Source of the DNA: an uncultured Clostridia bacterium
GTDB lineage: Bacteria > Bacillota > Clostridia > Christensenellales > Maliibacteriaceae
DNA: 48,361 bases
Assembly: GCA_934613185.1 (NCBI GenBank)
Contig: CAKTSO010000001.1
Coordinates: 1 to 48,361, forward strand
Direction: 5' to 3'
Under the pieces are notes generated by a model. The model did no database searches. It was not told the origin of the DNA and was given only the letters and a program-made list of their open reading frames with translations. Made by a program: the position numbers and the translations under genes. Shown piece after piece: positions 7,332 through 26,000 of this stretch. Positions within the stretch are counted from its first letter, which is position 1; each line of letters begins with the position of its first letter.

Positions 7332-9140
7332 TTATTTTTTAAGGCTCGGCGGATTTTTTGCGGTTTCGCCGCCGTTTTCAAGCAAAAGCACCGCGAACGA
7401 CGCGCTCTGCACGGCATTTTGCTCGCCGTTTTCCTCCAAAACGATGGTATCGAAGACGATCCGCACGCGAACGCCGTTTTCTTCGAGTTCAGCGGTCGCC
7501 CAGTTTTCGTCGCCCGCGTCGTATCGTTCGGCGGCGCTTTGGATCGCGGCGTCAAGGTCGAAGCTCGCCGTGCCTTCGTCCGTCTCGACGGCAAGTTCGC
7601 CGGGGAGCGTCCGCGCCCAAACGTTGACCGAAGACATCTCCTGCCCTGCCGCGTCGCTCGGGTCGTAGAAGAAGTCGGGCAGAAGGAAGCGGCCGCCCGC
7701 CGTGTCGATCGCATCGTCCTCCCGCGTCAGGACGCGCGTTGTTTCGTTCACCCAATCGTCGACGCGCTCGCCCGACGGCGTTTCGCCCGCGACGTCGCCC
7801 GAAAATCCGAACGCGTTCCACGGATCGTCCGTCAAAATCTCGCCGCTTTCCAGCGTGATCTTGACGTTCGTCTGCGTCAGAAGGTAGCGTGCGGCGGACG
7901 TGATCGTCTCTTTCTGTTCGTCGGTCGCGTCGGGATTTGGCACGACGCATTCGCGGCTTCCCATTTCAGCTTCGGCCAGCGCGCGGTCAAGCCGCGCCGT
8001 CTGCGACAGGCGGCACAACGTGAACACGTTCAAAAACGGCAGAAGCGCCGCCGCGATCAGCGCGATCCCGAGGGAAAGCGGCAGCGCGCGCGCGGAGAAT
8101 GTTTCCCCGAAAAAGAATGCATAGACGAGCGCGCCGAGCATCCAAAGCCCGAAGAGAACGGCGAGAAGGCGCTGCGGCGTTGCGCCGTAGGCGCGGATGC
8201 GGATGAAACAGGCAAAAAACAGCATCGTAAGCGGCAGAAGCCAAATCGGCGGCGCGGCGCGGAAAAACCCTTTCGCCGCGCGGTCTTCCCGCCCGCTGCC
8301 GAAGAAAAACAGCACGCAGGCGACCGCGGCGCTTGCGAACAAAACGAGCGGCGCGACCTCGTTGCTCGGCCAAATTCCCGTGCCGAGGATGCGCAGAAGA
8401 TAGCCGTAGAAGATCAGCGTCAGCGCGCACAAAAGCGGCAGGACGCCGAATCGGACGAACGCGTTCGCCGCGCGCGGCAGGGATTCCCGCATCGGCTCGT
8501 CGGGCGTCAGCTTCGGCAGAATCAAAAGCGGCAAAAGCGCGCCGTAATAAAGCGCCGCTGCCGTACCGGTGAATCGGAACGGCGAAACCGAGCTTTGCGA
8601 AAGCAGCGCGCCGAACGCGAAGAACAGCGCAATCGTCCCCAAAAACAACGCGGTCGAAACGAGCGCGCCGAGGAACCCCGCCCAAACAAGACGCACGCCG
8701 AACCGCGCCCCCGCCTCCCCCTTCGGGCAAAGCGCCGCGAACGCGAGCAAAAGCAGCGCAAACGTCAATATCGACACGGCCTGCGGCGTCTGCGGCAGTT
8801 TTTGCCCGAGCACGGCGGGAAGATAATACCCGCCCGCCGCGACGGCAAGCGTCCCGAGCGAGGCGGCGGCGCGAACGGACGCCGAGGTTTTGCCGCGCGC
8901 GCAGCAGGCGGCGCAGAAACATTCCGCCGCGAACAAAAGCCACAAAAACGGGAAGGGCGCGTCGTTTGAAAACAGCGCAGTAATGCCGGACATGGCATCC
9001 GCCCCGAAGCCCTCCAGGGCAATGCAGCAGCCGACGATGGCGAGACACACGGCATAGGGCGCGTAAAACAGCGCGAGCGCACGCAAAAGCGGCTCGGGCG
9101 AAATGATGCGCCGCGAATTTGTTTTTCTTTCCGCTTCCAT
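7332..9140 (-). CDS. Polytopic membrane protein (DUF4153-like) with a soluble acidic C-terminal domain
   Basis: 602-aa ORF with an AAGGAGG RBS. About 10 or more hydrophobic helices in the first ~400 aa, then a hydrophilic ~200-aa domain. The family assignment is from memory only. Confidence 0.7.
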   Translation of the reverse strand: MEAERKTNSRRIISPEPLLRALALFYAPYAVCLAIVGCCIALEGFGADAMSGITALFSNDAPFPFLWLLFAAECFCAACCARGKTSASVRAAASLGTLAVAAGGYYLPAVLGQKLPQTPQAVSILTFALLLLAFAALCPKGEAGARFGVRLVWAGFLGALVSTALFLGTIALFFAFGALLSQSSVSPFRFTGTAAALYYGALLPLLILPKLTPDEPMRESLPRAANAFVRFGVLPLLCALTLIFYGYLLRILGTGIWPSNEVAPLVLFASAAVACVLFFFGSGREDRAAKGFFRAAPPIWLLPLTMLFFACFIRIRAYGATPQRLLAVLFGLWMLGALVYAFFFGETFSARALPLSLGIALIAAALLPFLNVFTLCRLSQTARLDRALAEAEMGSRECVVPNPDATDEQKETITSAARYLLTQTNVKITLESGEILTDDPWNAFGFSGDVAGETPSGERVDDWVNETTRVLTREDDAIDTAGGRFLLPDFFYDPSDAAGQEMSSVNVWARTLPGELAVETDEGTASFDLDAAIQSAAERYDAGDENWATAELEENGVRVRIVFDTIVLEENGEQNAVQSASFAVLLLENGGETAKNPPSLKK

Positions 9141-9168
9141 GGGATCGACCTCCTTGCTTTATAATCGG

Positions 9169-9196
9169 ATTATAACATATAATTTATCCATGTCAA
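9169..9196 (-). promoter_or_regulatory. Sigma-A-type promoter for the 7332..9140 gene
   Basis: On the - strand: TTGACA (9191-9196), 16 nt, TGT-TATAAT (9169-9174), about 30 nt upstream of the ATG. Confidence 0.55.
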
Positions 9197-9213
9197 TCAT
9201 CATTTATCGTTTT

Positions 9214-9250
9214 ACAATAAAATGCTCCTCTCAAATCCGAGAGAAGCATT
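9214..9250 (-). terminator. Intrinsic terminator of brnQ
   Basis: Stem aatgctcctctc (9221-9232) / gagagaagcatt (9239-9250) with one mismatch. A T-rich run follows on the - strand. Confidence 0.65.
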
Positions 9251-9263
9251 TGGCGTCTTCGAT

Positions 9264-10448
9264 TCAGAAGATCATCGAAGCGATGCTGACGGCAAACCCG
9301 AGCGCCGCCGCGATGCGATGAACGATCGCCTTCTGCGCCCAGGAAAACGGCAGAAGGTTCAAAACGATCATGATGATCGCCACCGGGTACAAAAGCGTCA
9401 AAACCGGCACGGAGATCTTCAGGATCATGCCGAGGCCGAGGATCGACACGGCGAAGCTGACGAGCGTGAAGATGCGAAGCCAGCACAGGAACGAGAATTT
9501 CGGGAACTCGCGGTGGAAGAACGTCGCACAGCTTGACAAAAGCCCGGTGCAGACGTTGAAGCACGCCACGAAGAACACGAGCGCCAGAATCAGCGCGCCG
9601 ACGGGGCCGAACAGCCGCAGGCAAAGCCCGGACAGAACCGCCGTGCCGTCCGCCGCGCCGGAAAGAAACGCGCTCGCCCGCGCGCCGAGGAACGCCAGCG
9701 CGCCGTAGATCACGGCGAGAAACAGGCCCGTGATGACACCCGCGCGCATCGTCTCGCGCGCCACGTCGCCGTCGGATTCGATGCCGCAGGCGTGGACGTT
9801 CGCCGCGATGACGTAACCGAAGACGATCGCCGCGAGGGTGTCCATCGTCTGATAGCCGTCGACGAAGCCGGTCAAAAACGCGCTGCCCTCGGCGTAAGCG
9901 CCCGTCGCCGCGGCGGGGGCATCCTTCAAGCCGAAGATGCCGAAGACGAAAATCACGGCGATCAACGTCAAAAGCACGGGGGACATGCATTTGCCAAGCA
10001 CGTCTTTAAAATGCTCGGGCTTTCGCGCCAGAAGATACGCGCCGAAGAAGAACGCCGCCGAGAACGCCGCGCGAAGCGCCACCGTCCCGAACGGCGAGAG
10101 CGACAGCTTGTCGGTCAAAAACGCGAACATGGAAAACGACGTCGAGGCCGTGCGCGGAATGGCGAGCATCGGGCCGATGCAAAGGAACACGGCGATCGTG
10201 AACGCCGCGGCGAAGTATTTATGGACTTTGGCGAAAATGCGGTCCGTGCCGCCGACCTTCGCCACCGCGACCACGCCCAAAACGGGGAAGCAGACGGCGG
10301 TCAGAAGCATCCCCAGATACGCCGGAAGCGCCTTGACGCCCGCGCTGTAGCCGACATGCGGCGGGAAGATCAGGTTTCCCGCGCCGAAGAACATCGAAAA
10401 CAGCGTCACGCCGACCAGCGCAAGATTTTTGTTGGACAGTTTTTTCAT
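9264..10448 (-). CDS. brnQ: Branched-chain amino acid transport system II carrier (LIVCS family)
   Basis: ORF 9264..10652 trimmed to ATG 10448 (MKKLSNKNLALVGVTLFSMFFGAGNLIFPP, the BrnQ hallmark) with an AGGAGAAAAG RBS. About 12 TM segments. Confidence 0.85.
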   Translation of the reverse strand: MKKLSNKNLALVGVTLFSMFFGAGNLIFPPHVGYSAGVKALPAYLGMLLTAVCFPVLGVVAVAKVGGTDRIFAKVHKYFAAAFTIAVFLCIGPMLAIPRTASTSFSMFAFLTDKLSLSPFGTVALRAAFSAAFFFGAYLLARKPEHFKDVLGKCMSPVLLTLIAVIFVFGIFGLKDAPAAATGAYAEGSAFLTGFVDGYQTMDTLAAIVFGYVIAANVHACGIESDGDVARETMRAGVITGLFLAVIYGALAFLGARASAFLSGAADGTAVLSGLCLRLFGPVGALILALVFFVACFNVCTGLLSSCATFFHREFPKFSFLCWLRIFTLVSFAVSILGLGMILKISVPVLTLLYPVAIIMIVLNLLPFSWAQKAIVHRIAAALGFAVSIASMIF

Positions 10449-13403: not shown

Positions 13404-13508
13404 AAAAGCGTTCAAAAGCGTAATGTTTTGCGCCTGCGAACGGTTTTTAAAGGTGAGCGGCGTATGTTTTTTCGAAAACGTCCGGCGCTCTTTACGGAGG
13501 ATTGGAAC

Positions 13509-13997
13509 ATGCAGAAAGTTTTGCAGGACTGCGCAGTGGACGTCGACGGCGCGCTGCAGCGCAACGCTGCCCGCGTGTATCGCCTGGTCTATGCCCGCGC
13601 GCACCGCAAAGAGGACGCGGAAGACCTGTTTCAGGAGGTCTTCGTGCGCTACGCCCGCAGCGCTCCCGCCTTTGACAGCGAGGAGCACGAGAAGGCGTGG
13701 TTTCTTCGCGTGAGCATCAATTGCATCAACAGTTTTTATAAAAAGGCGGAGCATCGCCGCGCCGTCAGCGTCGAACAGATCCCCGAAGGGGAGGCCGCGC
13801 CGCAGGACGATTTCGAGCTTCTGCTCCTGGCGCTGCCCGAGGAATATCGCGTGGAGGTGCATCTGTTTTACGGCGAACGCATGAGCGTCCGCGAGATCGC
13901 CGGGACGGTCGGCCGATCGGAAAACGCCGTGCGCGTGCGCTTGACGCGCGCCCGAAAAATGCTGCGCGAGAGCCTTACAGGAGAGGAACAGGCATGA
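13509..13997 (+). CDS. ECF-type RNA polymerase sigma-70 family factor
   Basis: ORF 13428..13997 trimmed to ATG 13509, which has a GGAGGA RBS 7 nt upstream. Region 2 is EDAEDLFQEVFVRY...AWFLRVSINCINSFYKK; region 4 is YGERMSVREIAGTVGRSENAVRVRLTRARKML. Confidence 0.85.
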   Translation: MQKVLQDCAVDVDGALQRNAARVYRLVYARAHRKEDAEDLFQEVFVRYARSAPAFDSEEHEKAWFLRVSINCINSFYKKAEHRRAVSVEQIPEGEAAPQDDFELLLLALPEEYRVEVHLFYGERMSVREIAGTVGRSENAVRVRLTRARKMLRESLTGEEQA

Positions 13998-14659
13998 CGA
14001 CACAGGAAAAATACGAAAAATACAACGAGACGGTCGTCCCGTCCGACGAACTGATCGAAAAAACGCGCGAGGCGATGCTCGCCGCGGCAAGCGAAGCGCC
14101 CGTGAAAAAGCGGAAACGAAACGGCGGACGGGTATTCGGCCGCGTGATGAGCTACGTCGGCGTGGCCGCCGCGTCCGTTTTAATCACCGTCGCCGCGCTT
14201 CGCATGCCGCAGCTTTCGGGGTTCTTTGCGGCGAAAAGCAGCGCCGATTTTCAAGCGGCGTCGGCCGATACGGCGATGATGGCCGAAGCGCCGGAAAGCG
14301 CCGCGCCGATGAACGGGGCGGATGACGCCGCCGCGGAGGAAACGGGCGAGGAGTTCGCCGACATCGAGATCTTCTACGTCGAGGACGGCGAGATCAAGTC
14401 CTGCGAGGAATACCTTTCCTGTTCCGTGGAGGAGGTCTTTGCCGCGTGGGCGAACAAAAACGCCGTCGCGGACGTGAAGGTCGAGAGCGTGACGCTCGAC
14501 GGGGGCGCGGACGCCGTCGGCGTGCGGATCGACTTTTCCGAAAATCTGCGCGAACAGATGGACGGCGAAGGGCTGCTGCTCTCGTCGCTGACGCAGACGC
14601 TCGCCGGGTATTTGAACGCCGACGGCATGGTTTTGACCTGCGGCGGGGAAGCGCTGTAA
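13994..14659 (+). CDS. Putative anti-sigma factor (single TM, extracytoplasmic GerMN-like domain)
   Basis: ATGA overlap with the sigma gene. One TM (VMSYVGVAAASVLITVAAL). The role is inferred from position and topology; the C-terminal domain assignment is tentative. Confidence 0.6.
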   Translation: MTTQEKYEKYNETVVPSDELIEKTREAMLAAASEAPVKKRKRNGGRVFGRVMSYVGVAAASVLITVAALRMPQLSGFFAAKSSADFQAASADTAMMAEAPESAAPMNGADDAAAEETGEEFADIEIFYVEDGEIKSCEEYLSCSVEEVFAAWANKNAVADVKVESVTLDGGADAVGVRIDFSENLREQMDGEGLLLSSLTQTLAGYLNADGMVLTCGGEAL

Positions 14660-16341: not shown

Positions 16342-17145
16342 TCAATCCGAGCACAGCTTCCCCCAGGTGACGGGGCCCGCGACGGCGTCGGCCTCGATGC
16401 CGCGGCTCGACTGGAACGCGCGCAGCGCCTTCGCCGTGTCCGCGCCGAATTCCCCGTCCGCCCCGGCCGCGCCGACGGGATAGCCCAGCGCGAACAGGCG
16501 CGTCTGCAAATGGGGAACGACGGCGTGCGCCGCGTTGCGGGACGCGGAAACGACGGGCAGCGCCGCGCGGGTGTTTTTTCCGACGATCCCGTCGACCGCC
16601 GTACCGACGGCGCGCTGAACGTCGCGAATGAACGAATCCGCGCTGTAGCCGCAGGCATGCGCTTTCGCGCCGCCGTAGTTCGGACGGACGTAACCCATGA
16701 CGAGGCGGCGGGCGCGAAGCTGGCGCATGACGCAGCCGCCGTTGTCCGCGCTCGAGACGGACGTGTTGCCCTCGATGGCGATGACGGCGTCCCGCTGCAC
16801 GCGCTCGACGATGCCGATGTGATCCGGGTCGGCGTCGCGGTCGAACTGATAGAGCACGAGGTCGCCCGCGGCGATGCCGTCGAATCCCGCGTGATACGTT
16901 CCGCGCCGCTTTGCGTCCGCCATGATCGCGGGGCAGGACGCGGACCGCGCGGCAAGATGCCCCGCGCCCGCCTTTTCCAGCACCCACGAAACGAACGCCG
17001 CGCACCACGGATAGCTTGCGCCGCGAACGCTTCTGCCGTAGAACCAGTCGTTGTATTTCACGCAGTTCGACCCCGACGGGGACTCCTTGACCCCGATCTC
17101 GGCCGCCGCGATGCGCACCACGTCACTTGCCGCCGCCATCTGCAT
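16342..17145 (-). CDS. CHAP-domain peptidoglycan hydrolase with two PG-binding-like repeats (endolysin-like)
   Basis: N-terminal CHAP pattern (YPWCAAFVSWV ... DPDHIGIVE ... EGNTS). C-terminal repeats GIVGKNTRAAL and GEFGADTAKALRAFQ resemble PG_binding_1. An alternative start at 17139 has better RBS spacing. Confidence 0.85.
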   Translation of the reverse strand: MQMAAASDVVRIAAAEIGVKESPSGSNCVKYNDWFYGRSVRGASYPWCAAFVSWVLEKAGAGHLAARSASCPAIMADAKRRGTYHAGFDGIAAGDLVLYQFDRDADPDHIGIVERVQRDAVIAIEGNTSVSSADNGGCVMRQLRARRLVMGYVRPNYGGAKAHACGYSADSFIRDVQRAVGTAVDGIVGKNTRAALPVVSASRNAAHAVVPHLQTRLFALGYPVGAAGADGEFGADTAKALRAFQSSRGIEADAVAGPVTWGKLCSD

Positions 17146-17323
17146 TCTCCCCCTTATGCCTCGTAAAGTAATACGTCATGACCGCGCCGTAGCTTGAAGC
17201 ATACAGCGTCAAAACCTCGCGCGGGACGTCCCCGCCGAAAAACAGCAAAACGCCCAGAAACGCCGTCATCGCGAGCGTCACGATCGACTTCAGATCGATC
17301 AGCTTCGACAGATTTTTTCGCAC
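17123..17323 (-). CDS. Small two-TM holin-like protein
   Basis: The ORF-track start (17341) is a TTG. An in-frame GTG at 17323 is preceded by AAGGAGG plus 5 nt, giving MRKNLSKLIDLKSIVTLAMTAFLGVLLFF... (66 aa, 2 TM, charged C-terminus). Overlaps the endolysin start. Confidence 0.65.
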   Translation of the reverse strand: MRKNLSKLIDLKSIVTLAMTAFLGVLLFFGGDVPREVLTLYASSYGAVMTYYFTRHKGENADGGGK

Positions 17324-17337
17324 AGTTTCCTCCTTTT

Positions 17338-17637
17338 TCAACCGATCCCGATGCGAACCAGAAGATAGCCGACGATCCCCGCGACCGCCGTCAAAAGCGC
17401 CTTTTCGATCACGGACTCCCAGCGCCGCGCGGGAACGAGCGTCAGCGCGCGAACGTCGTGCCGGATCTCGCCCAAATCGCGCTCCATGCGATCCTGCTTC
17501 GTGGCAAGCTGCGCCACGCTCGTCACGAGACGGTCGAGATCGTCCTGCCGCTTTTCCAGTCGCAAGACGCGGTGCGCGTTTTCCTCGATCGCCCGCGCGT
17601 TGTCGTGCACGGCGGCGATGAGCTGTTCATGCGTCAC
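17338..17637 (-). CDS. XhlA-like protein (coiled-coil with C-terminal TM anchor)
   Basis: ORF 17338..17769 trimmed to GTG 17637, preceded by GGGAAGGGAG. 99 aa: a coiled-coil (LRLEKRQDDLDRLVTSVAQLATKQDRMERDLGEIRHDV) plus the TM LLTAVAGIVGYLLV. Size and architecture match the PBSX XhlA family, from memory. Confidence 0.6.
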   Translation of the reverse strand: MTHEQLIAAVHDNARAIEENAHRVLRLEKRQDDLDRLVTSVAQLATKQDRMERDLGEIRHDVRALTLVPARRWESVIEKALLTAVAGIVGYLLVRIGIG

Positions 17638-17779
17638 AAAAATCACTCCCTTCCCCCGCCGGTCGGCCTTTGATGTCCGCCCCTGTGAGGCAACCATACC
17701 GCGCGCACGCCGCGTTCGCCAAGCGCGGCGGAAGTATTTTGGGAATTTTTTGAAGAAAAAACACGCCAAATTCGGCGCA

Positions 17780-17816: not shown

Positions 17817-18497
17817 TTACTTCTTTCGTTTTTTCAAAATCCCGTTCCAATGCACGAAACAGGTCAGATACCCGACCGCGCAAAGCGGCAGCGCGAAGAA
17901 GGCGTCCAGCACGGAATGCTGTTTCAAAAACACCGTCGAGGCGCAGATCAGGATCACAATGAGCCAGCAGGCGATCTGCCATACGGGGCGCTTATGAAAC
18001 ACGCCGCTGTCAAGGAGCGCAAACAGCGCCGCGAACGAGCCGATGACGTGGATCGACGGGCAGACGTTCGTGTTCGTGTCGATGGTATAGATCCACTCGG
18101 TCAACCGCGTCAGGAGATTGTCGCGCGGAAATTCCAGCGGCCGAAGCTGCTGACACGTCGGGTAGACAAGATAAACGATCCCCGTGACGATATACGTCAG
18201 CATAATGAACGCCATCGTGCGGCGGAACGTGTTCGGCGCGTAGATCGCGGCGAAGGCGAGGGAACCCGCGAGGAACACGAACCAGAAAAGATACGGCAAA
18301 AGGAACCATTCGCAAAACGGGATCGCGTCGTCCAGCGCGCAGTGCACGGGATGATACGGCCCGGCGAAGGCGTCCTCGATGACTTTGAAGAAGACGCCGA
18401 ACAGCGGCCAGAAGGCGAGCAGCCACAGGTGGCGATACTGTTTCTGATTCAATTTCGACAGGCGGAAGCCTTTGACGTCAATTTGAGGTTTCATCAT
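17817..18497 (-). CDS. PAP2-family membrane phosphatase
   Basis: The ORF-track start 18518 is a TTG; the first ATG is at 18497 and the true start is uncertain. Multi-TM, with motifs CPSIHV and KQHSVLD that fit the PAP2 C2/C3 signature. Confidence 0.75.
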   Translation of the reverse strand: MMKPQIDVKGFRLSKLNQKQYRHLWLLAFWPLFGVFFKVIEDAFAGPYHPVHCALDDAIPFCEWFLLPYLFWFVFLAGSLAFAAIYAPNTFRRTMAFIMLTYIVTGIVYLVYPTCQQLRPLEFPRDNLLTRLTEWIYTIDTNTNVCPSIHVIGSFAALFALLDSGVFHKRPVWQIACWLIVILICASTVFLKQHSVLDAFFALPLCAVGYLTCFVHWNGILKKRKK

Positions 18498-18632
18498 AGC
18501 TTGTTTTTCTCGTTTCAACCGGCGGTTTTTGCGCCGCGTTTTCGGGCGCGGGACTGGCTTTTCCTTCCCGTTTGACGGCGCGCTTTCGCGCGTCTTGCCG
18601 AGCGGGATTTCAAGGGTTCAAAACGCCATATG

Positions 18633-18781: not shown

Positions 18782-21475
18782 TCAAATGCTTTTTGAAAAC
18801 GGATTGCCGTTTTGATAGATCGTCTCTTCCACCGGATCGTAATAAAGCTCCATCGACTCCGCGATCCGCAGCATCTTGTCCTTCGGCAGACGAATGCCGT
18901 ATTCCGCCTCCAGCAGCGCAAGCAGCGCTTCCAGACGAATGCTGTCCCTGTCCCGAAGCAGCCAGGTCAGCATTCCCACAAAATTGCCGCCCGACGCGCC
19001 GTGCCGGAACATGCGCGTACCGCCGATCCGATAGCCCGAAAAATGCCGCGTATCTTCCATAAGAATCGACGCGTAAAACCATTCGTCGAACCCGAAGCGA
19101 TCCAGCGAATGTGAAAATCCCTTTTTGCGCAGCGACTGCACCGTGACGTATTCGTCGCCGCAGAATTCGTCGGCCGCCCTGCAATAGTCCAAAAGCTCGT
19201 CTTTCGTGATCCCGAGCGCGCACAGATGCCGTTCGTTCACATACTGCTGCGGCAGATATTCTACGATCCGATACGCCGCGCACAGGCGATGGCGCACGGT
19301 TGCGAACGTCGTAATGTTTCGAAACTGCGGATATTTCCGAAGATCGATCCTGTCTTCGCCCGTCAAAAACTTTTGAAAATAATCGACCGCGCCCGAAAAC
19401 GTGTTTTTCACAATATACCCCGAATAACCGGGATAAACGTGAAATCCGAGCGATTTTAGCGTATACGGATTCAGCGGCTCGTTCGCGGCGTTCGGGAATT
19501 CATGCCGATAAAGCGCCTCCGCCTGCCGGATGGTGTAAAAATCGCCCGTCAGGATCTGTTTCATCCGCCGATGCACGTCTTCGGGAAGCGGAACATAATC
19601 CACGCGGTAGCTTCCGTTATAATAATACGGATCGATGCACCCGAAATAATTGCCGCGAACCGTCGCGGCTTTGACGCCGTAGGTCTCCTCATAACGCATC
19701 GCAAGATCGTCCGCCCCGATCGGCGCATATTGCAGCAGAAGATCGTAAACCTGCGTCTTTACGTCCGCATTGCCGACCTTCACATTCGGCATTCTCTGAA
19801 ACGTCACGTTCGACGCTTCCTGCGGCCATATTTTCTTTAAAAGATTATGCAGTTCGTATTCATCCCGAATGTCATACCGGCGCATCAGCGCCGCATGATC
19901 CCGAAACAATCGCAACGTTGAAAACTCGACGTCGCGATACTGTTCCAAATCAAGTTCGCACAGCAGCTCCGAAAAATCATACTGTTCGATCGGATAATAC
20001 CGAAAATGCTTCCATTGATGCCAAAGCGTATACTCGCAGCCCGACAGCTTGTTTTCGTAAGCCTTCGATTCCAGCCGCAGCGAAGCTTCGCCCGCCAGCC
20101 CCAGTTCCGCCAGCCACGCATGATACCCGTCGACAAAATCCCGATACGCCGTCAAAAGCGCGCAGCGCGTCCGCACATAATGCCGCACCAGCTCGGGACG
20201 GCTCTTTTTCACATACGCGCCCTCCAAAAGCACATAATGCTTGAAGACCGCGCGCTCGGCCTGTTTTCGCACCCGAACGTCGATCGTCTCGTCCGTCAAA
20301 ATCGCTTCCAACGGCAGTTTATCGGCGCTCGGGACGGAATTTGTCATTTCCAGATAATAATACGTCTCCTGCGGCACATCGAACGCGAGCATAACGTCCT
20401 GTTTGGAAAAAAGATAGCGCTCAAACAGCGGAAGATAGCGGTCCTCTTGCAGATACGGCCTTTTTTGAAGCCATTTTTTGATCACCTGACGAACCCGTTC
20501 CCGCGTCACGCCGTAGCATCCGCCGATTTGTTCCAGCGTCATTCCCGCAAGGCGCCCCGACAAAATCTCGAGCGCGCGAATTTCTTCGATCGAGGCGATG
20601 TACTCGCGCACCGTCGGGTAACGCCGCCGCGCGATCATGCCGTCCCATTCGATCTTCCCCTCGCGTTCCGATTCCGACAGAAGTTCCCGCAAAACGCCGC
20701 CGGTTTCAAGATGCGGCGGCATCTGCACGGCAATCTGCGGCGCCGAAAGTCCTTCCCCCTCTTTTTCCAGAATCCGAAGGATCTTCCGCTTCGCCGCTTT
20801 CCGCACGCAGCTTTGTTCGTAAAACACGTTCACCGGCACGTCGTCCCGCGGCCCGTCTTTTCGGGAAGCCGCCCGCAAAAACGCGCGCAGCCAGACGTTT
20901 TCCGATCCTCCGTAAGCCGCCAGCGTCTGCGTCAATAAAGGCGGCGGCGCACCGTCCTTTGTCCGCCAGGCCACGCGCAGCTTCGCCAAATATGCGCTCG
21001 TCTGCCGCGCCGTTTTTTCACCCATCGAAGGCATCGCCGTCAATTCGTCAAACGACATGCCGACAAGCTCGGACGCCATGGCAAGGCCCGCCAGCGAAAA
21101 TCGATTTTTGGCGCGTTCGGAGATTGGAAGCGCCGCAATCGGAAGATCGCCGAGCACATTGCCTTTTTCGTCGATCAGAATGCATGCGGAACCGTCGCCC
21201 GCAAGATAGCCCCGCATCGGTTCGGGTTCCCTTTGCGGCAAAACGGCCTCTTTCTCGACCAGCCGATACGCCCCCGAGCCGTCTTTGAGCGTCTGCATCC
21301 AGGAGCGAACCTCGCGCGCCGTTTTCTCTCCCATATTTCGGATCGACAAAAGCCGCTCCGGCGGATAGGCAAGCAGTTCGCCGATCGTGTGAATGTTTTC
21401 GCTGTTTAAGCAGTGAATCGCCCGAACCGACAAAGGCAATGAAGTAATCTCGTCCCGACGGGTAAGATCGGTCAT
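18782..21475 (-). CDS. Large orphan protein: two RNA polymerase alpha-CTD-like HhH modules, a sigma-70 region-4-like HTH, and a ~550-aa unknown C-terminal region
   Basis: 897 aa with ATG at 21475 and a GAGGA RBS. Module 1 is LPLSVRAIHCLNSENIHTIGELLAYPPERLLSIRNMGEKTAREV. Module 2 is ISERAKNRFSLAGLAMASELVGMSFDELTAMPSMGEKTARQT. HTH is LAGMTLEQIGGCYGVTRERVRQVIKKW. Confidence 0.8.
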   Translation of the reverse strand: MTDLTRRDEITSLPLSVRAIHCLNSENIHTIGELLAYPPERLLSIRNMGEKTAREVRSWMQTLKDGSGAYRLVEKEAVLPQREPEPMRGYLAGDGSACILIDEKGNVLGDLPIAALPISERAKNRFSLAGLAMASELVGMSFDELTAMPSMGEKTARQTSAYLAKLRVAWRTKDGAPPPLLTQTLAAYGGSENVWLRAFLRAASRKDGPRDDVPVNVFYEQSCVRKAAKRKILRILEKEGEGLSAPQIAVQMPPHLETGGVLRELLSESEREGKIEWDGMIARRRYPTVREYIASIEEIRALEILSGRLAGMTLEQIGGCYGVTRERVRQVIKKWLQKRPYLQEDRYLPLFERYLFSKQDVMLAFDVPQETYYYLEMTNSVPSADKLPLEAILTDETIDVRVRKQAERAVFKHYVLLEGAYVKKSRPELVRHYVRTRCALLTAYRDFVDGYHAWLAELGLAGEASLRLESKAYENKLSGCEYTLWHQWKHFRYYPIEQYDFSELLCELDLEQYRDVEFSTLRLFRDHAALMRRYDIRDEYELHNLLKKIWPQEASNVTFQRMPNVKVGNADVKTQVYDLLLQYAPIGADDLAMRYEETYGVKAATVRGNYFGCIDPYYYNGSYRVDYVPLPEDVHRRMKQILTGDFYTIRQAEALYRHEFPNAANEPLNPYTLKSLGFHVYPGYSGYIVKNTFSGAVDYFQKFLTGEDRIDLRKYPQFRNITTFATVRHRLCAAYRIVEYLPQQYVNERHLCALGITKDELLDYCRAADEFCGDEYVTVQSLRKKGFSHSLDRFGFDEWFYASILMEDTRHFSGYRIGGTRMFRHGASGGNFVGMLTWLLRDRDSIRLEALLALLEAEYGIRLPKDKMLRIAESMELYYDPVEETIYQNGNPFSKSI

Positions 21476-21549
21476 CGTTTTTTCCTCATTTTCAAAATTT
21501 CAAAAGCGTGCGCGCCGTGCCGTTGTCATAAAATGCTGAAATTAACTTT

Positions 21550-21578
21550 ATTATACGTCCCGGCGCCGGCTGTGTAAA
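21550..21578 (-). promoter_or_regulatory. Sigma-A-type promoter of the 897-aa gene
   Basis: On the - strand: TTTACA (21573-21578), 17 nt, TATAAT (21550-21555). Confidence 0.55.
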
Positions 21579-21605: not shown

Positions 21606-21642
21606 CAAAAAAGAGCTTATCGGTTCGACAAGCTCTTTTTTC
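21606..21642. terminator. Intrinsic terminator after the ABC exporter operon (symmetric A/T runs)
   Basis: Stem aagagctt (21611-21618) / aagctctt (21630-21637), flanked by A-runs and T-runs on both sides. Confidence 0.7.
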
Positions 21643-21661: not shown

Positions 21662-23395
21662 TTATTTCCCGATCGTCCAGGCGGCGCTTCGGCGCTGCCG
21701 CGCGGCCATACGGGCGAAGACGCCGTCTTTTTGCAAAAGCTCTTCGGGCGAGCCCTGCTCCGCCACGACGCCGTCTTTCAGGACGACGACCTTGTCCGCG
21801 CCCTCGACGGTGCGCATGCGGTGCGCGATGACGAGGACGGTCTTGCCGCGGATCAGGCGGGACAGCGCGCTTTGGATCGCCGTCTCGTTCTCCACGTCGA
21901 GACTCGCGGTCGCCTCGTCGAGCAGGATCACGGGCGCGTCCTTCAAAAACGCGCGGGCGATCGAAATGCGCTGGCGTTCGCCGCCGGATAAGAAGCTGCC
22001 GTTTTCGCCGATGTCCGTATCCCATCCCTCGGGCAGCTTTTCGGCGAACTCGTCGACGTTCGCGAGCTTCGCCGCCGCGCGGACCTCTTTGTCCGTCGCG
22101 CCGCGCCGCCCGATGCGGATGTTGTCCATGACGCTGCCGTTAAAGAGCGTCACGTCCTGGAAGACGATCGAATACTGCGACAGGAGCGCTTCGGGGTCGA
22201 TCTTGGAGACATCCATGCCGCCCAGCGTGATCCTGCCGGAGTCGGCGTCCCAGAACCTTGCCGCGAGGCGGGAGACGGTCGTCTTGCCGCCGCCCGACGG
22301 GCCGACGAGCGCCGTGACCTGCCCCTGCTTCGCCGTGAAGGACACGTCGCGCAGGACGTGTTCGCCGTCTTCATACGAGAAGGCGACGTGATCGAAGACG
22401 ACGTCGCAGCCGTCGTTGGTAAGCGCGGTCGCGCCGGTCTGGATCGGGCAGTCCAGGATGCTGTTCATGCGTTTGACGTTCGTGTCGGTCGCAATGATCA
22501 CGGCCAGATTCTGCACCGCGCCGTCGAGGGGTTCGTACAGCCGCGCGACGACGAGCAGATACAGAAAATACGTCAGCATGTCGATCTGTCCGCTTTTTAA
22601 CAGCGACGCGCCGCAAAGCGCCGTCGTGGCGATCCCCAATCGCAGGATGAGCGAAGCGCTCGTGACGAACGCCGCCGTGCCGAATTCCGAGCGGATGATG
22701 CGGTTTTCCACCGCGCGGATCTTTTGTTCCAAACCGTCCAGATAGCGATCCTGCGCGTTGTTCGAGCAAAGGTCGCCCATGCACTCCATGGCTTCCTGAA
22801 TGCCTTCTTCGCAGGCGATCTTCGCCGCGGACGCGCGCTGCGACAATCTCTTTTGCATCCCGGAGGCGCAGCAGACCACGGCGATCGCCACCGGCACGAC
22901 CCAGACCGCCGCAAGACCCATGCGCACGTTATAGCAAACCAGCGCGACGGCAATGAGGATCGTCGAGACCATCGCGCCCAGAAGCGGCGCGACGGCATGG
23001 GACTGCGCCGTCTCCAGCACCGCGCAGTCGTTCATGATCGACGACGTAAGGTCGGCCAGATCGCGTTTCCCGAAGAACGAAAGCGGGATGCGGCGCAGAC
23101 GCTCGGCAAGCGCGATGCGGCGCACGCCCGTCTCGCGGTACGTCGCAAAGAACGTGCCGTTATACTGGTACACGCTGCACACGACAATCAGCGCCGCGCA
23201 GCCAAGGCTCCCCAAAGAATAGAACCTGCCGCGCCCGGCGAGCGTGCCGTTTACAAGATCGCGCACGAGCGAAAACAACAGCGCCGCGGGGATCATGAAC
23301 GAAATGTTCTGCAAGGCACAGTACAGGCTGCCCGTCAGAAGATCGACGGCGCCTTTTTTCGAGAGCGCAAATCTGCGCTGAAAGAATCGGATCAT
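21662..23395 (-). CDS. ABC exporter, fused permease/ATPase (heterodimer partner B)
   Basis: 577 aa with 6 TM plus an NBD. Walker A GPSGGGKTT, signature LSGGERQR, Walker B ILLDEATASLD, H-loop VIAHR. Confidence 0.9.
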   Translation of the reverse strand: MIRFFQRRFALSKKGAVDLLTGSLYCALQNISFMIPAALLFSLVRDLVNGTLAGRGRFYSLGSLGCAALIVVCSVYQYNGTFFATYRETGVRRIALAERLRRIPLSFFGKRDLADLTSSIMNDCAVLETAQSHAVAPLLGAMVSTILIAVALVCYNVRMGLAAVWVVPVAIAVVCCASGMQKRLSQRASAAKIACEEGIQEAMECMGDLCSNNAQDRYLDGLEQKIRAVENRIIRSEFGTAAFVTSASLILRLGIATTALCGASLLKSGQIDMLTYFLYLLVVARLYEPLDGAVQNLAVIIATDTNVKRMNSILDCPIQTGATALTNDGCDVVFDHVAFSYEDGEHVLRDVSFTAKQGQVTALVGPSGGGKTTVSRLAARFWDADSGRITLGGMDVSKIDPEALLSQYSIVFQDVTLFNGSVMDNIRIGRRGATDKEVRAAAKLANVDEFAEKLPEGWDTDIGENGSFLSGGERQRISIARAFLKDAPVILLDEATASLDVENETAIQSALSRLIRGKTVLVIAHRMRTVEGADKVVVLKDGVVAEQGSPEELLQKDGVFARMAARQRRSAAWTIGK

Positions 23396-23398
23396 TCG

Positions 23399-25201
23399 TT
23401 ACGCCTCCTTTGCCACGTTCCAGGACGCGGACGTCTGCCACTGCGTCCACATGTCGCGGAACAGGCCGTCTTCGCGTGTCAATTCGTCGAACGCGCCGCT
23501 TTGCACGATTCGGCCAGAGTCCAGAACGAAGATCCTGTCCGTGCCCGCGACGGTCGAGAGGCGATGCGCGATCATGACGATCGTCCGCCCGTGCGCAAGG
23601 TCGGCAAGCGCCTTTTGCACGCGCACCTCGTTGTCGGGGTCGGCGAAGGCCGTCGCCTCGTCGAGCACGACGATCGGCGCGTCCTTCAAAAACGCGCGGG
23701 CGATGGCGATGCGCTGGCACTCGCCGCCGGAAAGATAGACGCCGTTCGTCCCCAGGCGCGTGCGGATGCCGTCGGGAAATTTTTCGACGATGTCCATGCA
23801 CTGCGCCTTTCGGAGCGCGGCGAGAACCTCCTCGTCCGTCGCGTTCGGGCGCGCAAGGCGCACGTTGTCGGCGATGGTTCCCTTTAAAATATGGGAATTC
23901 TGGAAGACGAACGCGATCTTATCCGCAAGTTCCTTTCGGTCGATCGCGCGGGCGTCCGCGCCGCCGATCAGAACTTTGCCCTCCTGCGGGTCGAAGAAGC
24001 GGGCGATCAGCTCCGCCGTCGTGGACTTGCCGCCGCCCGACGGGCCGACGAGCGCCGCCGTCTGTCCGCTTTCGATGCGAAGGGAAATATCGTGCAGCGC
24101 GTCTTTTGCCTTCTCGCCCTCGTCATAGCGGAACGTGGCGTGATCCAGTTCGATCGTCGCGTCGGCGGGATGCGCCGCGGGCGCGATCTGTTCCATGGGG
24201 GCGCAGGCGAAGACTTCGTCGATGCGGGCGAGCGCGTCGGCGACGATCAGTGTGTTTTCGCTCATGTACATGATCCTGGTCAGCGACGAGACGATCATGG
24301 GCGTGAGGATGATATAGAAAAGAAGGTTCAGGATGAGCTCCCGCGACACGCCGCCTTCGGAAAGCCAAAACGCGCCGAGAATCAAAAACGCGAACACGCC
24401 GTTGATCGCCAGCGTGCAGGCGGTCATCGGGGCGCGCATGCTCCTTGTGTAGGAGACCGTCCAGTCCTCGTAGTTGTCGATCGTCTTTTTCAGCCGCGCG
24501 AAGGAATAGACCGTCTGCCCGAAGGTCTTGACCACGGGAATGCCGCGGACGTATTCGACCGCCTCGTTGGCCATATCCGCCAGCGCGTTTTGATACTGCT
24601 TCATCTTCTCCTGAAGGGACTTTCCCGTCATGGACAGCATGCACAAAATCCCGATGACGATCGGCACGAGGCTCAGCGCCCCCAGCCTCCAGTCGAACAC
24701 GAACAAAAGCACGAACAGCCCCGCGATCGACGCCATCGCGCGTGCGCGGTCGGGCAGCTGATGCGCCAGATACGTCTCTGCCGCGCCGGACGTCTCGTAG
24801 ATCGTGCGGCGCAGCTTGCCGCTGCCGAAGCGCTCGATCTGCCCCATGGGGAGCGTCGCGATGTGGCGCGAGAGCGCGATGCGAAGGTTCGTCGCCACGC
24901 GGAACGCCGACAGGTGCGAGCACATCAGCCCCGCGATATACACAAGCATCGCCGCGACGGAAAAGATCACCGCCGCGCGGCCCCAGGAGGCAAGATGCAC
25001 GGCGCGGGAAAAATCGGGTGCCGTCTCCAGCACCTCACGCAAAATGCGCCAGATGTACCAAAGCGGCACGAGCGCCAGCACAGCGCTCGCCGCGGCCAGA
25101 ACCTGCGACAGCGCGGTCAGCGGGCGCCGCGGCCCCGCGTAGCGCAAAAGGCGCGACAGGTCGGACGGCTTTTTCTCCTTTTTCTTCGGAGTTTCCTTCA
25201 A
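23399..25201 (-). CDS. ABC exporter, fused permease/ATPase (heterodimer partner A)
   Basis: 600 aa. Walker A GPSGGGKST, signature LSGGECQR, Walker B VVLDEATAFAD. Separated by 3 nt from the partner gene. Confidence 0.9.
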   Translation of the reverse strand: MKETPKKKEKKPSDLSRLLRYAGPRRPLTALSQVLAAASAVLALVPLWYIWRILREVLETAPDFSRAVHLASWGRAAVIFSVAAMLVYIAGLMCSHLSAFRVATNLRIALSRHIATLPMGQIERFGSGKLRRTIYETSGAAETYLAHQLPDRARAMASIAGLFVLLFVFDWRLGALSLVPIVIGILCMLSMTGKSLQEKMKQYQNALADMANEAVEYVRGIPVVKTFGQTVYSFARLKKTIDNYEDWTVSYTRSMRAPMTACTLAINGVFAFLILGAFWLSEGGVSRELILNLLFYIILTPMIVSSLTRIMYMSENTLIVADALARIDEVFACAPMEQIAPAAHPADATIELDHATFRYDEGEKAKDALHDISLRIESGQTAALVGPSGGGKSTTAELIARFFDPQEGKVLIGGADARAIDRKELADKIAFVFQNSHILKGTIADNVRLARPNATDEEVLAALRKAQCMDIVEKFPDGIRTRLGTNGVYLSGGECQRIAIARAFLKDAPIVVLDEATAFADPDNEVRVQKALADLAHGRTIVMIAHRLSTVAGTDRIFVLDSGRIVQSGAFDELTREDGLFRDMWTQWQTSASWNVAKEA

Positions 25202-25306
25202 GGAACAACCCCTCCTTCTTTTTGTATTTTTTTATGATAGCGCGGGCGCAGCGCCCGGGATATCCGTTTCGTTAGTTTTGGCTAACTTTCATGCCAAAGA
25301 AAAAAC

Positions 25307-25918
25307 TCATGCGCCCATGAGCTTTTTCCAGCCCGCGATGTAAAATTCGTGCATCTGGCGCAAATAGTTCCGCGCCGCATCGCGCGTCATGTCATGCAGG
25401 ATAATTTCGAAATACGCGTTGAACATCCCGGTCACGAGCATGTGCTCCAGATGTTCGTCCACGCGCGGCGCGGGGGTGCCGAGCGCCTCGAGCGTCTCGT
25501 AATAGCGGTGCGTCGCGGCGACTTCGAGCGCGATCACCTCCTCGCGCATCGATTCGTAGCGCGTTCCGGCGGCGCAGTTCAAAAGCAGGCGGAACGCTTC
25601 GCGATGTTCCGTCATATAGTCCAGCGCCCGCTGCATATACGAGGCGGAAATGCGCCCCATGTTTTCGGGCTGCTCGTTTTTCGGCAGCGCGTCGAAGTCG
25701 GCGAGCACCTTTCGATAACCCGACAGCACGACGCGATAGGGCTCGTCCACAAGCGCGGCAAAGACCGCCTCTTTGCTTTCGAAATAGCCGTAGAACGCGC
25801 CCGTCGTCACGCCCGCCTCGCGGACGATCCGCCGAAGGGAGGCCGCCTGAAAGCCGTGCGCGGAAAATTCCGCCGCCGCGCAGGACAAAATGCGCTCCCG
25901 CGTCCCCGTGTTCGCCAT
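25307..25918 (-). CDS. TetR/AcrR family transcriptional regulator
   Basis: ORF trimmed to ATG 25918 (MANTGTRERILSCAAAEFSAHGFQAASLRRIVREAGVTTGAFYGYFESKEAVF, the canonical TetR N-terminal HTH) with an AAAGGAGG RBS. Confidence 0.85.
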   Translation of the reverse strand: MANTGTRERILSCAAAEFSAHGFQAASLRRIVREAGVTTGAFYGYFESKEAVFAALVDEPYRVVLSGYRKVLADFDALPKNEQPENMGRISASYMQRALDYMTEHREAFRLLLNCAAGTRYESMREEVIALEVAATHRYYETLEALGTPAPRVDEHLEHMLVTGMFNAYFEIILHDMTRDAARNYLRQMHEFYIAGWKKLMGA

Positions 25919-25941
25919 AAGGCAGCCTCCTTTCGCGTTTG

Positions 25942-26000
25942 TGTTAGTGTTGCATAACATATAACAGTGTTACAATAATCCATCCGCGCCCGTCTGTCAA
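25942..26000 (-). promoter_or_regulatory. tetR promoter with overlapping palindromic operator candidates
   Basis: On the - strand: TTGACA (25995-26000), 17 nt, TATTGT (25972-25977). The perfect palindrome taaca-N-tgtta (25962-25972) lies immediately downstream, and a second tgtta...taaca pair is at 25942-25959. Confidence 0.45.

Follow-up and report, generated by a model that had tools for sequence, protein, structure and literature searches.

We analyzed gene A, an intact open reading frame of 897 codons on the minus strand of a 48,361-nucleotide stretch of DNA (the window) from an uncultured Clostridia bacterium. Its product, protein A, is probably the DNA-reading subunit of an undescribed, candidate anti-mobile-element system, and the copy in the window would be one that has survived as a stand-alone DNA-binding protein. 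Among its relatives, gene A usually heads an operon, A-B-(PLD)-C, which adds a ParB-fold protein (B), often a phospholipase D-like (PLD) protein, and an SNF2 ATPase (C). The A/ParB-like/(PLD)/SNF2 system is apparently both widespread and undescribed, and its conserved partners point to a DNA-targeting conflict system and not to an RNA polymerase (RNAP) decoy, the activity that an annotation made from the bare sequence (the first-pass annotation) had suggested.

18782..21475, minus strand: gene A, encoding P0001, an 897-aa DNA-binding protein of several domains that belongs to the A-B-(PLD)-C operon family as a solo member (open reading frame, homologues, AlphaFold2 model).

As modeled, protein A is a string of nucleic-acid-binding modules consisting of two copies of the RNAP alpha-subunit C-terminal domain (alpha-CTD), a winged helix, a helix-turn-helix (HTH) of the sigma region-4 type and about eight further winged-helix or helical units. 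All of these are encoded on the minus strand:

21290..21451: alpha-CTD-like module 1, residues 9-62 (PF03118, matches to PDB sequences, Foldseek root-mean-square deviation 0.9-1.5 A).
20981..21142: alpha-CTD-like module 2, residues 112-165 (second PF03118 stretch, homologous to module 1 by hhalign).
20615..20818: winged-helix-like module, residues 220-287, opening the conserved family core (helix-helix-helix-strand-strand pattern in the AlphaFold2 model).
20450..20590: sigma-70 region-4-like HTH, residues 296-342, with recognition helix T324-R-E-R-V-R-Q330 (PF04545, matches to sigma A region 4 in the PDB).
18797..20449: C-terminal array of about eight winged-helix or helical modules, residues 343-893 (predicted local distance difference test, pLDDT, mostly 85-95; Foldseek).

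The N-terminal assignments are supported by both sequence and structure. The Pfam model RNA_pol_A_CTD matches protein A in two stretches with 78.2 bits (cut-off 23.8), and the two copies are homologous to each other with an hhalign probability of 99.6%. Both modules superpose on solved alpha-CTD structures within the deviation given above, with template modeling (TM) scores of 0.67-0.87 and 33-43% identity. Sigma70_r4 matches residues 309-338 (27.0 bits, cut-off 24.1), and a search of PDB sequences with protein A returned alpha-CTD and sigma A region-4 chains only. The two alpha-CTD-like modules and the region-4-like HTH had been recognized at first pass and are borne out; the reservation that the N-terminal modules might be generic helix-hairpin-helix units unrelated to the RpoA CTD is not, as Pfam and structure identify them as genuine alpha-CTD homologues.

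The remainder of the protein, residues 340-897, matched nothing in Pfam, NCBIfam, PHROGs, PADLOC or the sequences of the PDB. This region is rich in Tyr (8.6%), Arg (8.1%) and Phe (5.0%), and no transmembrane segment was found anywhere in protein A, where the longest hydrophobic run is 7 residues. The library searches and the composition thus agree with the earlier description of roughly 550 C-terminal residues of no recognized family, rich in Tyr, Phe and Arg and lacking a transmembrane segment. An AlphaFold2 model built on 63 homologues has a mean pLDDT of 85.6, exceeding 85 over most of residues 290-880. Compared with the PDB by Foldseek, the long region resembles tandem winged-helix proteins, namely UFL1/DDRGK1, SelB WH1-4, ESCRT-II and Dcc1 (probability 0.8-0.99), and its modeled secondary-structure string falls into about eight successive helix-helix-helix-strand-strand units. 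No enzyme fold or recognizable catalytic domain occurs among the Foldseek matches of protein A; the possibility raised earlier that a known enzyme family occupies this region gives way to a tandem winged-helix array. Comparison of the C-terminal modules with one another yielded no convincing sequence repeats (best hhalign probability 36%), and the units are too diverged to be detected as such. Among the viral structures in BFVD there is no full-length match to protein A. The same database holds small stand-alone proteins (130-240 aa) of several tailed phages that are annotated or folded as RNAP alpha-CTD, and these match the N-terminal modules of protein A only.

Protein A belongs to a large family with a patchy distribution. 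A word-indexed search with residues 340-897 gave 402 matches, of which the best 120 are almost all about 900 aa long and carry the same two Pfam domains, and phmmer, run exhaustively over 1.84 billion cluster representatives, found at least 772 clusters (50% identity) at E <1e-30. With at least 402 homologues from one search alone, the label of orphan that the protein had initially received is wrong. Homology between the window copy and the approximately 900-aa family is full-length (E values down to 1e-264, coverage 98-100%). In distant members the match begins at about residue 215, which defines a conserved core made up of the first winged helix, the sigma-4 HTH and the entire C-terminal region and leaves the alpha-CTD part variable. 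The family has no name apart from the automatic NCBI label 'sigma factor-like helix-turn-helix DNA-binding protein' on plasmid records. The 80 named loci are mostly from Clostridia, Bacilli and Negativicutes, with others from Leptotrichia, Treponema, Desulfovibrionaceae, Muribaculaceae and Melainabacteria. Gene A was found in none of 40 relatives of the window organism, including three species of the same genus.

The neighborhood of gene A is far more regular than its distribution. Five distant homologues (47-55% identity over residues 340-897) were inspected and all five lie in an A-B-C arrangement, with 3 bp between A and a 402-aa B, followed by a 620-aa C that overlaps or abuts B. Sorting of the named loci by tblastn, for which 78 of the 80 could be scored, gave 40 A-B-C loci, 10 A-B loci, 17 solo A genes (counted only where at least 1.5 kb of downstream sequence was available), 5 loci of a Dialister/Veillonellaceae variant and 6 that were undecidable. 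The partners are much better conserved than A: identity to the reference sequences is 45-82% for B and C vs 27-46% for A, which fits a role for A as the fast-evolving, target-facing part.

Partner B is recognizable by fold only. It has no significant match in Pfam or among PDB sequences, a profile of B found nothing meaningful among the latter, and 11 of 19 members match Pfam ddrB-ParB weakly, below threshold. Its members share an invariant DGxRR arginine motif (D116, G117, R119, R120). An AlphaFold2 model of B (pLDDT 88.4, predicted TM score 0.78) has ParB, Noc or Spo0J proteins as all of its top 12 Foldseek matches, each with a probability of at least 0.99 and including CDP-bound ParB. From this model we assign B to the ParB/Srx fold. 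Partner C is a 620-aa SNF2/ResIII/Helicase_C ATPase with intact GSGKT and DEVH motifs, and in PADLOC it most closely matches the helicase cores of ZorD, DpdE, PbeA and DrmD. About a third of the operons have a fourth gene, for a PLD protein, between B and C (L035:4800-5480 and 14 further loci); it encodes 227 aa with an HxK motif and matches PLDc_2 at 29.1 bits (cut-off 27). In the five Dialister-type loci, the helicase itself carries a homologous PLD domain as an N-terminal fusion (tblastn E ~1e-25).

The Dialister/Veillonellaceae loci (L068, L071, L087, L090 and L091) form one clade with a support of 99 and lack the C-terminal tail motif described below. Their gene order is a 1087-aa A' with one alpha-CTD and sigma-4, a 425-aa protein with no assigned family, an optional 229-aa gene and the 698-aa PLD::helicase fusion, continuing with a 664-aa AAA_23 (SMC/RecF-like) ATPase and a 140-aa protein. 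In A-B loci lacking a C-like helicase (L072:11981-13492; L076:12390-13724; L015:9496-15966), the genes that follow are of three sorts, namely BrxL, an AAA_14/DUF4143 ATPase of the PDC-S01 type, or a UvrD helicase together with a 1058-aa SNF2 protein distinct from C. The helicase may be an interchangeable partner. No conserved alternative neighbor was found among the solo A genes or after B in the A-B loci.

The surroundings of the operon are, in qualitative terms, those of horizontally moving accessory cargo of the defense-island type. Among the 124 nearest neighbors of 32 diverse operons are PDC-S01 ATPases (5), AriA-like (3), PDC-S48 (3) and AbiEii-like AAA_21 (3) proteins, type I and type II restriction-modification genes, methylases of the DrmMII/DruM type, resolvases (4) and integrases (2). 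BrxL lies directly 3' of one A-B locus; other operons sit beside an integrase, a WYL gene and a resolvase, or behind the tail genes where a prophage ends. A relative is carried by 52 plasmid records, 48 of them from Enterococcus and most of them conjugative or mobilizable. Two that were inspected, L103 (NZ_CP141641) and L104 (NZ_CP092908), hold the full A-B-C trio, flanked by IS3/IS6 elements and by PemK/MazF, Fic and recombinase genes. The N-terminal alpha-CTD signal is weak or absent in the Enterococcus plasmid copies. No match was found in 50,697 sequenced phage genomes. A mobile-element origin of gene A, already suspected at first pass, is supported by these plasmid, prophage and integrative-element contexts.

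The cargo could instead work for its carrier. On this alternative, the ParB-like protein, the multi-HTH adaptor and the SNF2 protein would serve partition, replication control, entry exclusion or anti-defense, and the window copy would be a leftover regulator. Such a maintenance or competition module would account for the conjugative and mobilizable Enterococcus plasmids, the sites beside integrase and resolvase genes and at a prophage end, and the phage-type lysis cassette next to gene A in the window. It would also suit the ParB fold of B, since plasmid ParB-fold proteins act in partition and in plasmid-plasmid conflict (PMC5512222). However, no ParA-type partner was seen, the plasmid trio is insertion sequence-flanked cargo lying away from the replication genes, and the sequenced phages carry no relative. 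Moreover, many chromosomal loci lie beside restriction-modification, BREX or PDC genes, and a PLD nuclease is a frequent member of the operon. We consider this alternative unlikely.

To determine which surfaces of their RNAP relatives the modules of protein A retain, we aligned them to E. coli RpoA 249-329 and to region 4 of sigma-70, and counted conservation over the 63 homologues. The DNA-binding 265 determinant, which consists of R265, N268, C269, G296, K298 and S299 (E. coli numbering), is kept by both alpha-CTD modules. In module 1, R18 and G49 occur in 63 of 63 homologues and K51 in 55, and C22 is conserved; the position equivalent to N268 is His in the window copy and Asn in 59 of 63. 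In module 2, the corresponding counts are 60 for R121, 62 for N124, 63 for G152 and 60 for K154. Residues R325, E326, R327, R329 and Q330 of the sigma-4 helix are each present in 57-63 of the 63 homologues, and correspond to the -35-contacting R584, E585, R586, R588 and Q589 of sigma-70.

In contrast, the protein-contact surfaces are not conserved. The 261 determinant, which contacts sigma-4, reads T, S, P in place of D258, D259 and E261, and the 287 determinant, by which activators such as CAP are contacted, reads P and E in place of T285 and V287; the family consensus differs from RpoA at both. Additionally, Pfam detects neither the alpha-subunit N-terminal domain (alpha-NTD) nor Sigma70_r2 (region 2) in protein A. 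Only the CTD part of the rpoA models aligns (TIGR02027, 60 bits against a cut-off of 227.8), and the sigma model TIGR02937 (15.6 against 42.9) likewise matches through a small module only. With the 265 and -35-contact residues kept and the 261 and 287 surfaces not conserved, the borrowed modules look competent for DNA binding and do not seem shaped to imitate the surfaces through which RNAP parts contact other proteins. That protein A reads promoter-like DNA, meaning an UP element together with a -35 box, is on these residues a fair idea.

These results bear directly on the earlier proposal that protein A is an RNAP mimic or decoy, which would compete for UP elements, -35 boxes or activators with the alpha-CTD and region 4 of sigma, and so re-route transcription independently of any partner. 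One part of the proposal holds, as the alpha-CTD and sigma-4 homology is true and the DNA-contact residues of both module types are conserved. The order alpha-CTD, alpha-CTD, sigma-4 also mirrors that of promoter DNA, which runs from distal UP through proximal UP to -35 (compare PDB 3n97), and solo copies recur and are maintained by selection. The rest is not supported: the sigma and activator contact surfaces are not conserved, alpha-NTD and sigma region 2 are lacking, the alpha-CTD region varies within the family, and most members are tied to ParB-like, SNF2 and PLD genes in one operon. Furthermore, the BREX protein PglW uses the same module as the DNA-binding part of a defense protein. A decoy therefore appears very unlikely to us, and the conserved partners of A, which are B, C and often a PLD protein, lead us back to a DNA-targeting conflict system.

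A short C-terminal tail ties protein A to its operon. Near-invariant in B-linked A proteins, it ends at the carboxyl terminus as ...IMEAVYIDYDTYFEEI (final residues DYDTYFEEI). Of 50 B-linked A proteins, 48 carry the motif Y-x-x-Y-[FYL]-[EDK]-[EVN]-[IVL], at the exact C-terminus in 45 and followed by a short acidic extension in 3; all 17 solo and all five Dialister-type proteins lack it. In some solo proteins a decayed form of the motif can still be recognized. At least 11 independent changes to the solo state are needed on the A tree, so the link between tail and partner does not trace to a single inheritance. A-B loci lacking C retain the tail, which suggests B rather than C as the docking partner. 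Thus, the acidic and aromatic tail of A may well dock onto the ParB-like B. The window copy lacks the motif:

18785..18832, minus strand: degraded C-terminal tail, residues 882-897, with ...VEETIYQNGNPFSKSI replacing the family motif ...IMEAVYIDYDTYFEEI (alignment of conserved positions); the protein ends ...IYQNGNPFSKSI.

The window copy is solo in other respects as well. Neither B nor C was detected by tblastn in the window or in the whole genome, a metagenome-assembled genome of 225 contigs that is 88% complete. A 97%-identical twin of gene A from another metagenome (L006) has the same neighbors and is likewise solo. The pair is nested inside a clade of operon-type (A-B-C) sequences with a support of 92, on a stem of 0.83 substitutions per site vs 0.17 for the stem of the sister clade. 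Over the 222 alignment columns that are at least 90% conserved, the window protein matches the consensus at 84%, the lowest of all 63 sequences (the other 61 have a minimum of 87% and a median of 97%). Of its 36 consensus changes, 9 fall within the last 16 residues, where every one of the nine conserved positions in residues 882-896 is changed. All 59 family-invariant residues are nevertheless kept. Between the window copy and its twin, the ratio of nonsynonymous to synonymous substitution rates (dN/dS) is 0.24, calculated from 39 synonymous and 32 nonsynonymous differences between two close relatives (dS 0.064), and neither gene has a stop or frameshift. Read from these comparisons, the window copy appears to derive from an operon-type A, to have shed its partners and tail and diverged quickly, and to be under selection today. 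It most likely works alone as a DNA-binding protein, be it a regulator, a silencer-like promoter occluder or a guard for some other partner.

Signals for separate expression are found directly upstream, all on the minus strand:

21578..21550: sigma-70-type promoter-like site, TTTACA-17-TATAAT (consensus scan, 11 of 12 matches).
21607..21640: terminator-like hairpin and T-run at the end of the upstream ABC-transporter gene, aaaaagagctt-gtcgaaccgat-aagctcttttttg (putative function).
21483..21487: GAGGA ribosome-binding site, 7 nt 5' of the ATG (direct reading).

The promoter noted at first pass is thus present as a promoter-like site, identified by consensus match in a region with 2 such sites where shuffled sequences would hold 2.1. 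With the hairpin closing the upstream ABC gene, gene A would begin its own transcription unit. It is plausibly monocistronic, judging from its own promoter-like site, a 263-bp gap and a second promoter-like site ahead of the next gene. Decay into a functionless remnant that is not yet broken after the loss of B and C would match the long stem branch, the low agreement with conserved positions, the lost tail and the repeated solo state (expected with operon decay), but the low dN/dS in two uninterrupted reading frames, the retention of every family-invariant and key DNA-contact residue, and a good promoter-like site and ribosome-binding site make it the least likely of the three alternatives.

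Taken together, the A-B-(PLD)-C operon would be an undescribed nucleic-acid-targeting conflict system, most likely directed against phages or plasmids, with A as its fast-evolving DNA reader and scaffold. In such a system, A may read the A/T-rich minor groove through its alpha-CTD modules and a -35-like hexamer through sigma-4, with more contacts made by the winged-helix array. Its tail would recruit B, a ParB-fold NTPase or nickase, and the SNF2 motor, together with the PLD or ParB nuclease/NTPase, would act on the DNA bound by A. A bolder version, which we consider speculative and unlikely in its full form, makes A, with its two alpha-CTD modules and sigma-4 helix arranged in promoter order on one polypeptide, a free-standing 'promoter reader' that recognizes strong promoter architecture without RNAP. 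The operon form would then load a ParB-like, NTP-dependent clamp or nickase and SNF2 (with or without PLD) at the strong early promoters of invaders, and widowed copies would be promoter occluders or xenogeneic silencers.

Several points weigh against the conflict-system interpretation. The role in defense is deduced from guilt by association with no matched neighborhood control, and the same genomic contexts would suit a system working for the mobile element that carries it. Apart from the ParB-fold protein, the three-gene form lacks a clear nuclease. The DNA-sequence preferences of A are deduced from conserved residues only, and docking of the tail from covariation, with no contact demonstrated. 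For the window copy in particular, the incomplete genome leaves the absence of B and C unproven, and dN/dS derives from 39 synonymous and 32 nonsynonymous differences between two close relatives.

Two features lie downstream of gene A in the window, both on the minus strand:

17817..18518: polytopic membrane protein, weakly PAP2-like, downstream of gene A (Pfam PAP2, 18.2 bits against a cut-off of 27.2).
16342..17769: phage-type lysis cassette with XhlA-like, holin-like and CHAP + PG_binding endolysin genes (PHROG and Pfam matches).

The PAP2-like gene stands where B stands in relatives of gene A. Its designation as PAP2 in the first-pass annotation falls below threshold, whereas the lysis cassette named there stands, with the XhlA-like gene matching phrog_937 (E 2.6e-9) and the endolysin phrog_9589 (E 3e-35). 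The cassette is context and lies outside the A system. No phage structural genes were detected beside it, and it is also present in the 97% twin locus. It may be what is left of a prophage, or a lysis module that has been domesticated. Directly upstream of gene A (21662-25960, minus strand) are a TetR regulator and two ABC_membrane/ABC_tran half-transporter genes. This TetR-ABC-ABC block is conserved in a complete genome of the same family, G005 (47-64% amino acid identity), in which gene A, the PAP2-like gene and the lysis genes were not found at the protein level. The block is the conserved side of a junction with the lineage-specific segment holding gene A; the same-genus genomes are too divergent for the insertion borders to be defined by DNA-level synteny.

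Further away, an ECF-sigma-factor-like gene and a downstream gene for a 221-aa protein with a weak Germane match occupy 13428-14659 on the plus strand, and the equivalents of this pair in the twin locus carry Sigma70_r2/r4_2. A strong AT skew of 0.27-0.45 at 8001-10000 lies over minus-strand membrane-protein genes, including one for a 602-aa polytopic protein (DUF4153 in the twin locus) and a branched-chain amino-acid transporter. As a special feature this peak was rejected, being ordinary coding-strand bias.

If the operon is a defense system, it is a widespread one, spanning hundreds of protein clusters mostly from gut Bacillota and extending to Enterococcus plasmids, and it is absent from the catalogue tested. 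Its sensing subunit would be built of recycled RNAP DNA-binding modules, giving a concrete setting in which to test immune sensing through promoter-like features of DNA and the cooperation between a ParB-fold protein and an SNF2 motor. The link between the nine-residue tail and partner B is a handle for dissecting the complex, and the Enterococcus plasmid copies bring the operon within reach of cultured strains. The repeated survival of 'widowed' A genes under selection also bears on how subunits of conflict systems become stand-alone regulators.

Comparison with known proteins and systems places the operon near several of them and within none. PADLOC 2.0 has no model that matches A or B, and a literature search found no description of the A/ParB-like/SNF2 trio. 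The alpha-CTD modules share with RpoA both fold and clear homology, the 265 determinant being common to the two copies; RpoA, however, has an alpha-NTD, whereas A lacks one, cannot assemble into RNAP and embeds its modules in an 897-aa multi-HTH protein. Similarly, A shares the residues of the -35-reading helix with sigma-70 region 4.2 but is no sigma factor, lacking regions 1-3. Over residues ~340-890 the best structural matches are tandem winged-helix scaffolds, namely the C-terminal WH1-4 of SelB, UFL1/DDRGK1, ESCRT-II and Dcc1, which share a fold type only (9-16% identity, TM scores of 0.1-0.3 overall), with no common function implied.

Among defense systems, the operon resembles DISARM (DrmD SNF2, DrmC PLD and DrmA/B) in placing an SNF2-type ATPase with a PLD nuclease in defense islands, and Dpd in placing one (DpdE) with a ParB-like NTPase (DpdB). 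In contrast to DISARM, Zorya and Dpd, to which matches cover the helicase core only, it has no DUF1998 helicase, methylase, ZorAB or TGT. We rejected its identity as DISARM because the matches to DrmD are partial, covering the SNF2 core, and no DUF1998 or operon methylase occurs in the operons inspected; Menshen, ARMADA, Zorya, Dpd and MZA were rejected because their defining parts differ. Menshen (NsnABC) combines a ParB-fold protein and extra winged HTH DNA sensors with an NTPase and a nuclease effector (PMC12065111). Its parts are a ParB-DUF262 protein, an ABC ATPase and a PIN/BECR nuclease, with no helicase and no A-like protein, and B matches none of the Menshen models in PADLOC; the logic of ParB-fold protein, winged HTH sensors, NTPase and nuclease is nevertheless that of the A-B-C operon. 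Against the models for PglW (28.6 bits vs 990) and MzaA (23.2 vs 800), protein A matches through one small module each, which for PglW is the alpha-CTD stretch. Identity with BREX PglW or MZA MzaA was thus rejected, there being no full-length match above cut-offs and neither a kinase nor a full sigma factor in A. PglW differs further in its kinase and other enzymatic domains and its BREX operon, whereas A has no enzyme domain and keeps different partners. An alpha-CTD-like module nonetheless serves as a nucleic-acid-binding unit of this BREX protein (PMC12839542), and the C-terminal half of type 2 PglW follows that module with several winged helices to form its nucleic-acid-binding part, the same arrangement as in protein A.

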